Positions 44,404 through 44,880 of a stretch of DNA of 55,737 bases are shown here, piece after piece. Source of the stretch: an uncultured Muribaculaceae bacterium. Lineage in GTDB: Bacteria; Bacillota_I; Bacilli_A; RF39; UBA660. Location: assembly GCA_964458035.1 (NCBI GenBank), contig CAYWFZ010000005.1, positions 1-55,737 on the forward strand. The letters run 5' to 3'. The notes beneath the pieces were generated by a model. It had not been told where the DNA came from, did not search any database, and saw only the letters and a list, made by a program, of their open reading frames with translations. Positions within the stretch are counted from its first letter, which is position 1; every line of letters starts with the position of its first letter. A program made the translations under genes and the position numbers.

Positions 44404-44519
44404 ATTACACCTCTATTAATATATTATCAAAAATAATTCGTTTTTTAAACCTATTTCATTAAAAGAAATAAAAAATAGTGCAATAAAAATTAGCGCCTAG
44501 TATCTTAATTGATAAAAAC

Positions 44520-44548
44520 TTGTATTGTTAAATAAACTCTGTTATACT
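44520..44548 (+). promoter_or_regulatory. Sigma-A promoter of candidate antitoxin sRNA 2
   Basis: TTGTAT, 17 nt spacer, extended TG-n-TATACT; same -35 as locus 1. Confidence 0.7.
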
Positions 44549-44554
44549 TTAGAT

Positions 44555-44643
44555 GAGTGTGAAGCAGAAGTCCCTTTTGGCTGATGCGCAACACTATGTT
44601 TTTTGGTTTAGCATCTTTATTCAGAAAATAAAGATGCTTTTTT
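44555..44643 (+). ncRNA. Candidate antisense (type I antitoxin) sRNA 2, about 90 nt
   Basis: 5' hairpin AGUGU..GCA-GA-AGUC-loop-GGCU-GA-UGC..ACACU; terminator AGCATCTTTATT-CAGAA-AATAAAGATGCT with T tract; homologous to 7262-7343. Confidence 0.65.
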
Positions 44644-44647
44644 AATG

Positions 44648-44722
44648 TCAACCTTTTATAATTAACAATAAAATTATAATTAACAATAGTACTATGATAT
44701 CTAGCAACCTACGATTAATCAT
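44648..44722 (-). CDS. Small hydrophobic peptide, candidate type I toxin (MINRRLLDIIVLLLIIILLLIIKG)
   Basis: ATG after SD GAAGGGGTG; single TM; SD region pairs with upstream 44780-44793. Confidence 0.75.
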   Translation of the reverse strand: MINRRLLDIIVLLLIIILLLIIKG

Positions 44723-44824
44723 AAACAACACCCCTTCTATTCACTTCAATCCCCCCTGAATAAATTTAAGCCAAAAGGTATAGAATGAGTGTTACGCATC
44801 TTTTCTTCTGCTTCACAAGTTGTT

Positions 44825-44853
44825 ATTATAAAAACATTTCTATATTCTAACAA
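44825..44853 (-). promoter_or_regulatory. Sigma-A promoter of peptide mRNA 2
   Basis: Minus strand TTGTTA, 17 nt spacer, TATAAT. Confidence 0.65.
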
Positions 44854-44871
44854 GAGTTTATTTTAGCTTGT

Positions 44872-44880
44872 TTTGTCGAA
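44872..44880. promoter_or_regulatory. Spo0A box
   Basis: TTTGTCGAA, same orientation relative to the peptide gene as in locus 1. Confidence 0.6.

Follow-up and report, generated by a model that had tools for sequence, protein, structure and literature searches.

A multi-copy intergenic cassette of an RF39 gut bacterium, most likely a type I toxin–antitoxin module of a previously undescribed family

Architecture of the cassette

The window analysed here, that is, the whole stretch under study, comprises 55,737 nucleotides (nt) of contig CAYWFZ010000005.1 (assembly GCA_964458035.1), deposited as an uncultured Muribaculaceae bacterium and placed by GTDB in the RF39 lineage (UBA660). One of its intergenic gaps, at positions 44517–44880, is flanked by two minus-strand genes, which encode a WG-repeat protein and a protein of 503 amino acids (aa) without a Pfam family. 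This gap holds a convergent pair of predicted transcripts, a structured small RNA (sRNA) of about 89 nt on the plus strand and a messenger RNA (mRNA) of about 206 nt on the minus strand, with one hairpin common to both. Judged by its sequence, the element is most likely of an ordinary kind, a type I toxin–antitoxin module, in a previously undescribed family that would be distinguished by its high copy number and by an antitoxin resembling the leader of the toxin mRNA.

The predicted antitoxin sRNA extends over approximately 89 nt of the plus strand (44555–44643), with ends placed from its promoter and terminator. The promoter (44520–44548) consists of a −35 box TTGTAT (44520–44525), a 17-nt spacer, and an extended −10 element TGTTATACT (44540–44548); with three of six matches in the −35 box it is not listed by the consensus scan, yet it is conserved family-wide. 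The sRNA comprises a three-tier 5′ hairpin (44556–44595), a U/G-rich single-stranded linker (44596–44609), and a terminator hairpin (44610–44638) of 12 base pairs (bp) that is followed by a T-run. It scores 91.2 bits (E = 2.7e-18) against the sRNA covariance model R1 and folds with a minimum free energy (MFE) of −27.8 kcal/mol (z = −3.68), a value as good being reached by 0 of 200 shuffles. The hairpin at 44610–44638 is part of both RNAs and, according to the terminator scan, is a canonical terminator for the plus-strand sRNA only; as read in the minus-strand RNA, its loop is UUUUCUGA, which contains a YUNR motif.

On the minus strand, a promoter with the boxes TTGTTA (−35) and TATAAT (−10) at a 17-nt distance (44825–44853; 10 of 12 consensus matches) would start an mRNA near 44816, which would contain a 94-nt leader, a Shine–Dalgarno (SD) region, an open reading frame (ORF) from 44722 to 44648, and then the complement of the sRNA hairpin. 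The 206-nt version of this mRNA folds with a z of −5.01, and none of 200 shuffles did as well. Its 5′ end (GUGAAGCAGAAGAAAAGAUGC, 44796–44817; repeats I2 and I20), identical in sequence to the 5′ end of the sRNA (44558–44570), is the 5′ strand of a predicted 15-bp clamp, whose partner in both the MFE and the centroid structures is the mRNA-side arm and loop of the hairpin (44622–44637, minus strand). The SD region (AUAGAAGGGGUGUUG, 44726–44740; inverted repeat I7) is the 3′ strand of a sequestering helix formed with an anti-SD segment of the leader (AACACUCAUUCUAU, 44780–44793), and this segment would also be targeted by the 5′ arm of the sRNA through direct repeat D3. In the apical leader hairpin (44751–44778; inverted repeat I12), CCUUUUGG (44770–44778) pairs with a conserved UUCAGGGGG tract (44751–44759), and CCUUUUGGCU of this hairpin also occurs, in the same sense, in the sRNA apex (44573–44582). 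The ORF (44648–44722, minus strand) has an ATG start and encodes, in 24 codons plus a stop, the predicted membrane toxin MINRRLLDIIVLLLIIILLLIIKG. An 18-nt tandem direct repeat inside it (44656–44691, 89% identical) encodes the two LLLII stretches of the peptide.

The first-pass annotation of this DNA had described the locus as a second, diverged copy, with the same architecture, of a peptide/antisense cassette elsewhere in the window, and the intervals 44517–44880 and 7225–7545 do align, at 76% mean column identity. The sister cassette (7225–7545, plus strand), which belongs to subfamily B, carries its sRNA at 7261–7344 (plus strand; 88.4 bits with R1) and its peptide ORF at 7345–7416 (minus strand). 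All the elements that had been pointed out were found where they had been placed, and the motifs recur in both window copies, namely GAAGCAGA (44561–44568 and 7268–7275), GATGC (44583–44587 and 7290–7294), the hairpin GCATCTTTATTCAGAA..AATAAAGATG (44611–44637 and 7311–7337), CCCCCTGAA (44752–44760 and 7449–7457), and ACTTCAA (44744–44750 and 7431–7437). The claim of a 24-aa peptide holds for the ORF at 44648–44722, but not for the sister ORF at 7345–7416, the product of which, (GTG)INLKDLIMLIQTITILLLILFG, has 23 aa and a GTG start. Both promoters are recognisable, as had been proposed, the plus-strand one reading TTGTAT-17-TATACT with a TG extension and the minus-strand one being that given above. 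In addition, the 11-mer AAATAAACTCT, said to lie in both promoters, is present at 44530–44540 (plus) and 44853–44863 (minus), which makes two matches in the window against 0.22 expected, a number reached in 1 of 100 shuffles; it was not found in the other cassette copies and its positions in the two promoters are non-equivalent, and it is read as copy-specific or a product of chance. The observation of a second copy is itself real and far beyond chance.

A family of cassettes with a conserved peptide gene

The assembly to which the window belongs (1.72 Mb in 107 contigs, 28% G+C, 71% complete) contains 11 copies of the cassette according to blastn and 12 according to both nhmmer and R1, which form at least three sequence groups and include one tandem pair on contig 21. 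Identity between subfamilies is 76% or less. A search of 61 genomes with R1 found matches in 15 of the 21 other genomes of the same genus, with 1–11 in each, in 1 of 15 other genera of the taxonomic family, and in 0 of 24 genomes outside that family; the early proposal of a multi-copy family is thereby borne out, with 12 copies in the genome itself and more in its congeners. The sole match outside the genus (G025) was rejected as a cassette, being merely a terminator behind an ordinary gene. When one genome per species was scanned for the hairpin pattern, two records only were returned, both named 'uncultured Bacilli bacterium' and both from a mouse-gut catalogue. Tandem matches 350–440 nt apart occur in several genomes (contig 21 of the present assembly, C21; G018:C1 209827/210203; G004:C4; G010:C111; G008:C8). 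Altogether, 45 full-length cassettes were extracted, 36 of them distinct (11 from the present assembly and 25 from relatives), and the twelfth copy of the assembly (C44) was treated separately.

The position of the cassette is not conserved between species. The 503-aa gene lies upstream of the cassette on the mRNA strand, and in three other genomes (G007, G018, and G014) its orthologue, with 51–40% identity, has no cassette beside it, though 8–11 copies are present elsewhere. Non-syntenic positions, together with the multiple copies, the length of about 320 bp, the inverted repeats near both ends (I2), and the breaking of public assemblies at the repeated hairpin, would be compatible with a mobile element or miniature repeat that has inverted ends and carries its ORF and promoter-like motifs only incidentally. 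However, strongly diverged copies keep an ORF with third-position bias, compensatory changes in RNA helices, and both promoters, while the cassette flanks contain no transposase or phage genes and collections of plasmids, phages, and viral contigs gave no cassette match, and we consider a mobile element very improbable.

In four public runs, the contigs either cover the flanks of the locus or, where they hold 44611–44643, end or start at the repeated hairpin, and none of them gave evidence of a transcript. The cassette family fragments short-read assemblies, and the copy numbers of metagenome-assembled genomes are consequently lower bounds.

The putative toxin gene is well preserved among the further copies. 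An SD region and an ORF of 23–30 codons that ends beside the hairpin are kept in 34 of the 36 distinct cassettes, with third-position-biased variation; within clusters of related ORFs, 56 variable sites fall on third codon positions, 35 on first, and 20 on second, and 36 of the 80 variable codon columns are purely synonymous. The lack of a conserved ORF in further copies, which the first-pass annotation had named as a ground for refutation, is therefore not what was observed. The 27 distinct peptides, of 23–30 aa, consist of I, L, V, F, A, or M in 59–78% of their residues, carry 1–4 charged residues among the first eight, and usually have one basic residue near the end. As outlined in Fozo et al. 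(2010), candidate type I toxins are recognised by the shortness of the ORF, by 10 or more hydrophobic residues in 15, and by intergenic tandem repeats, and these peptides fit that description. Pfam gave nothing relevant for any of the 27 peptides (best E-value 0.11), and NCBIfam and PDB sequence searches gave no relevant match.

Such a gene could also encode a non-toxic small membrane protein, the level of which would be tuned by the antisense RNA outside any addiction or stress module. The support for the cassette (coding signature, hydrophobicity, and antisense partner) lies at the sequence level only, and the peptides show none of the motifs that mark characterised toxin families. Nevertheless, there are 12 diverged paralogues in a 1.72-Mb assembly, tandems are common, and positions turn over between species, traits that, going by the account in Fozo et al. 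(2010), are typical of type I loci and unusual for housekeeping micro-proteins; moreover, the double silencing of the mRNA, described below, suggests a dangerous product. A harmless micro-protein is, in our opinion, rather unlikely.

Some copies deviate in their coding part. The copy on contig 26 (L007; C26:18109–18438) keeps its sRNA (81.5 bits); its peptide frame lacks a start codon downstream of the SD, as though a one-base shift had occurred, and its hairpin loop contains no YUNR motif. Here, the toxin gene is probably decaying and the sRNA surviving. In five of the 36 cassettes (L004, which is C21b, L039, L038, L055, and L059), an in-frame TTG about 8 nt past the conserved CAGGGGG would lengthen the peptide to 32–36 aa, in a region that holds stops in the window copies, and this G-tract might serve ribosomes as a standby or alternative site. 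On the sRNA strand, ORFs of 30 and 33 aa were rejected as coding, given that 1-nt indels separate close copies and that they have no SD.

Both promoters can be followed across the family. The extended −10 element of the sRNA promoter (TGnTAYAHT) is present in 34 of 36 cassettes and a TTG in the −35 zone in 32, and the mRNA promoter shows a TAnnnT hexamer in 33 of 36 and a TG extension in 7 of 36. Upstream of the −10 box of the peptide mRNA lies a conserved TGTCGAA/TTCGACA motif (window positions 7534–7546 and 44874–44880; L036, L052, L033, and others), which may act as a −35 box or as a regulator site. The copy at 44520–44880 has it about 25 nt further upstream, displaced by extra sequence with a different −35 box, and one group of relatives repeats the motif as GTCGAC-containing copies (TCGACAAATGTCGAC). 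A single relative (L051) lacks the −10 region of the peptide-mRNA promoter, the remaining cassette being intact.

The hairpin common to both RNAs is followed by at least six T in 9 nt on the sRNA side in 34 of 35 cassettes and on the mRNA side in 0 of 35 (one cassette falls outside the pattern used for these counts). On the mRNA side, its loop ends in CUGA or UUGA, that is, in a YUNR motif, in 34 of 35 cassettes, a count that concerns the presence of the motif and not its function. Since there is no U-tract on the mRNA side, the mRNA may read across the whole sRNA gene, and a crude scan of the sequence past this gene in the 12 copies of the assembly found a terminator-like site in four and none in eight (C44, with its hairpin misplaced, being unreliable). 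The absent mRNA-side U-tract and the eight copies with no such site downstream are what would be seen if the peptide mRNA were a leader transcript that reads through the hairpin, so that cassette and sRNA would regulate the downstream gene, and gene orientation is in line with this, as the upstream neighbour of the peptide mRNA is co-directional with it in all 12 copies and the downstream neighbour in nine. However, the downstream genes are unrelated to each other (WG-repeat protein, DUF4186, and others), three of the 12 are convergent, a terminator-like site stands just past the sRNA gene in four of 12 copies, and in three other species the orthologous neighbours stand without a cassette; the orientation bias may merely mirror the gene strand bias of these genomes. 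Thus, we would give leader regulation of a neighbouring gene only a small chance.

Predicted structures of the two RNAs and possible pairing between them

The folding of the mRNA was assessed through three nested helices taken from the window copy and an alignment of 27 mRNAs, from which nine of the 36 cassettes were left out, four with identical mRNA stretches and five with ends that could not be set. In this alignment, 84.4% of the cells are paired, against 43–51% when the partners are slid by 1–3 columns, and none of 500 shuffles attained the observed covariation score. The helix between the leader segment and the SD region (helix 2, alignment A3) is 90.3% paired, with changes on both sides in five of nine pairs. 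The clamp between the 5′ end and the 5′ arm and loop of the hairpin (helix 1) is 94.2% paired, with one compensatory pair, 22–224, which is CG in 18 mRNAs, UA in 7, and UG in 2. For helix 4, the apical hairpin that includes the conserved UUCAGGGGG tract, the paired share is 74.5% and the covariation support is weaker. This covariation supports both the helix that would bury the ribosome-binding site and the 5′–3′ clamp.

In the other window copy (7450–7470, minus strand) and in other subfamily B and C cassettes, the apical leader hairpin is followed by GGUUUUGUUUUUUU and is listed as terminator-like, which could represent a premature terminator (attenuator) upstream of the SD; there is no such U-run after the apical leader hairpin of the copy at 44751–44778. 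As for the sRNA, RNAalifold on 16 sequences recovered the structure only in part, since the subfamilies differ in the register of the apical stem. Moreover, 19 of 31 distinct sRNA apical segments fold alone into at least 4 bp, so the apical stem is not universal.

The only perfect complementarity between sRNA and mRNA is the hairpin common to both, and full-length co-folding is dominated by this trivial 3′ overlap; when the hairpin is removed, the U-rich linker pairs with the purine-rich mRNA 5′ end in eight of 12 copies, a pairing of low specificity. Beyond this overlap, complementarity exceeds that of shuffled sRNAs most strongly at 60–80 nt upstream of the start codon. Here, nt 1–12 of the sRNA pair with mRNA nt ~16–31, which is seen in the DNA as direct repeat D3 (44553–44566 and 44785–44798; 14 nt, 86%), with a mean energy of −10.5 kcal/mol and a mean z of −2.4, 17 of 27 values being below −2 and mostly in the same register. 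A role of the sRNA apical loop as an anti-SD was rejected, as the duplex energies at the start region are not above those of shuffles and at −20 the excess amounts to no more than about 1 kcal/mol.

It had also been suggested that differences in the loops could give each sRNA specificity for its cognate mRNA. The apical loops do differ between copies, but pairing energies leave loop-based cognate specificity not supported; besides, the shared hairpin is nearly identical within a subfamily, so that cross-talk is predicted rather than specificity.

Modules of the mRNA leader are copied, in the same sense, in the 5′ domain of the sRNA, and this appears in the DNA as three inverted repeats, TGTGAAGCAGAAG (13 nt, 100%), GATGCGCAACACT (13 nt, 92%), and CCTTTTGGCT (10 nt, 100%). 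An origin of the sRNA by inverted duplication of the mRNA promoter and leader, as first proposed, is thus matched by the leader repeats of 13, 13, and 10 nt, but the promoters lie outside the repeat and the module order is permuted, being I2–I12–I5 (1-3-2) in the sRNA and I2–I5–I12 (1-2-3) in the mRNA, and so a simple inverted duplication of promoter and leader does not fit. The third element varies between lineages and is identical between sRNA and leader within one cassette; for instance, one cassette has CCUUUGGGAU in its sRNA and mRNA alike, and a close relative has CCUUAUGUG in the two. Likewise, the longest common same-sense word has a mean length of 7.46 nt in 26 cognate pairs, against 5.27 nt with other groups and 4.77 nt with shuffled apices (10 of the 36 cassettes were left out, eight unmatched by the pattern and two without an ORF). 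A third, complementary copy of the element was sought within the cassette and was not found. Gene conversion between the arms or selection for leader mimicry would both explain such same-sense co-variation.

In this regard, the antitoxin might be a mimic of the toxin mRNA leader that acts as a decoy rather than a plain antisense RNA, a speculation that we find doubtful. The modules common to both would be the 5′ hairpin sequence, GAUGC-NNN-CAC, and a lineage-specific 'address' element of 7–10 nt, and the sRNA would compete with the leader for the 3′ hairpin arm and loop of the mRNA, for its read-through 3′ extension, or for a protein, the outcome deciding whether the mRNA stays clamped. Decoy control, if true, would be a logic not described for type I systems.

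Interpretation and relation to known systems

We consider it probable that the cassette is a chromosomal type I toxin–antitoxin module, representing a new family that is restricted to one genus, and that its construction and probably also its control resemble those of par and SprA1/SprA1AS. This reading builds on the observed architecture, copy number, coding constraint, covariation of helices in cis, and complementarities. A weak promoter would produce an mRNA of about 206 nt or longer for a membrane-inserting peptide of 23–30 aa, and this mRNA would silence itself twice, by pairing of the leader segment with the SD region and by the 5′–3′ clamp between its extreme 5′ end and the 5′ arm and loop of its 3′ hairpin. 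A strong convergent promoter would drive an sRNA of about 85 nt that ends at the same hairpin and has at least 27–29 nt of perfect complementarity with the mRNA, an overlap that would span the whole sRNA upon mRNA read-through, as no U-tract follows the hairpin in the mRNA. Contact would begin between the complementary hairpin loops, with the YUNR motif in that of the mRNA, pairing would then spread along the hairpin, and a 10–11-bp pairing of the sRNA 5′ arm with mRNA nt ~16–31 would reinforce the complex. The resulting complex would be untranslated, cleaved by a double-strand-specific ribonuclease (RNase), or both, and repression could be achieved by a strand swap that lets the 3′ arm of the sRNA capture the SD spacer, by cleavage of the 3′ duplex, or by other means.

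Several points weigh against the toxin–antitoxin interpretation. We infer that the two RNAs are transcribed, that the peptide is toxic, and that the sRNA neutralises it, as well as the course and the result of RNA pairing. All the covariation comes from one genus, with few independent events, and the structure that was assessed derives from one aligned sequence. In all 35 cassettes counted, no U-tract follows the hairpin on the mRNA side, and two of 36 cassettes (the contig 26 copy of the present assembly and L026) have no clean start codon. Cognate and non-cognate pairing energies barely differ (−10.5 vs −9.45 kcal/mol). Furthermore, the additional pairing hits the 5′ half of the anti-SD and, alone, would open rather than hide the ribosome-binding site, and the sRNA 5′ domain pairs with the translation start region no better than shuffled sRNAs do (mean z about −0.6, with 3 of 34 below −2).

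The closest parallel is par of the Enterococcus faecalis plasmid pAD1, in which RNA I is the mRNA of the Fst toxin, RNA II is the antitoxin, and a YUNR-type loop motif starts loop–loop contact, as described in PMC7472228. As in the par locus depicted there, the cassette has convergent promoters (promoter-like sites, in this case) and a hairpin common to both 3′ ends that makes the loops complementary, the one of the toxin RNA bearing YUNR. In both systems, an intramolecular stem-loop (5′-SL in par) sequesters the SD and a further helix (5′-UH) does so for the extreme 5′ end, a DNA direct repeat creates a second, dispersed complementarity, and the overlap stops before the ORF (PMC7472228). Unlike the bidirectional par terminator, the hairpin terminates the sRNA only; its direct repeat is placed on the anti-SD segment, whereas DRa and DRb of par target the SD and the start codon; and the cassette mRNA 5′ end pairs with the 3′ hairpin itself. 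Toxins of the Fst/Ldr type are marked by a P/D/S/TxxxG(C) motif within a transmembrane helix, after which come a conserved Trp and a charged tail at the C-terminus. The peptides also differ from these, since [PDST]xxx[GC] is found in 0 of 27 and Trp in 2 of 27, and 25 of 27 lack a charged tail, with at most one charged residue in the last six. Three defining Fst features (bidirectional terminator, start-site repeats, and peptide signature) thus fail and no curated model applies, which points to a new par-like family rather than to a member of Fst. At Rfam gathering thresholds, the only family reached in the window is a T-box leader (5252–5452, minus strand; 96.7 bits), and a permissive Rfam scan of both loci gave nothing relevant. 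In the literature, we found no paper linking type I systems with RF39, Mollicutes, Erysipelotrichales, Acholeplasmatales, or Turicibacter, though the toxin lists that supplement Fozo et al. (2010) and the entries of T1TAdb might hold similar peptides.

Other systems share parts of this design. The 5′ domain of SprA1AS of Staphylococcus aureus is reported to pair at the translation start. As portrayed in the T1TAdb paper (PMC8594479), the antisense RNA of SprA1/SprA1AS lies on the 3′ side and overlaps the mRNA and not the ORF, with functional pairing outside the overlap via the sRNA 5′ domain, as would be expected here. Fst/RNA II and SprA1/SprA1AS together form a Gram-positive group with this arrangement, whose antisense RNAs act in part beyond the overlap (PMC8594479), and it is this group that the layout of the cassette matches. 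Unlike in SprA1/SprA1AS, the complementarity of the cassette sRNA to the start region is not above shuffles, and the peptides are unrelated. In TxpA/RatA and BsrG/SR4 of Bacillus subtilis, the overlaps of ~75–120 nt include the ORF, and the toxins have 38–59 aa. These systems resemble the cassette in being convergent pairs with a 3′ overlap, in which the long duplex would be a double-strand RNase substrate (PMC8594479), and SR4 is described, in PMC3834814, as changing the structure around the SD. In contrast, the certain overlap in the cassette measures 27–29 nt and ends 4 nt short of the stop codon.

In hok/sok and AapA1/IsoA1, the full-length toxin mRNA is locked by long-distance 5′–3′ pairing and a buried SD; these systems are Gram-negative, with an antisense RNA located within the 5′ region of the mRNA instead of at its 3′ end. 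The 5′–3′ clamp of the cassette mRNA is like that of the hok and AapA1 mRNAs, and, by analogy with this lock, suggests that activation might occur by 3′ processing. Ibs peptides are very short as well. Like Ibs/Sib as treated in Fozo et al. (2010), the cassettes combine very short, nearly purely hydrophobic peptides with multi-copy tandem intergenic loci, but Sib RNAs cover the whole ORF, going by PMC8594479, and the system is enterobacterial.

Peptides of this kind are missing from the annotations of uncultured gut bacteria because they are too short for gene callers, and the repeated hairpin breaks metagenome assemblies. A reduced genome, of 1.72 Mb assembled at 71% completeness, carries at least 12 of these modules, and its congeners carry up to 11. 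If the peptides are real toxins, the modules would represent a sizeable unannotated share of the stress, persistence, or genome-stability equipment of these bacteria. Moreover, the family offers a clean comparative set, with dozens of diverged paralogues that combine a buried ribosome-binding site, a 5′–3′ clamp, and a leader-like antitoxin, in which the co-evolution of RNAs, and the way in which paralogous sRNAs share or partition their targets, could be followed.

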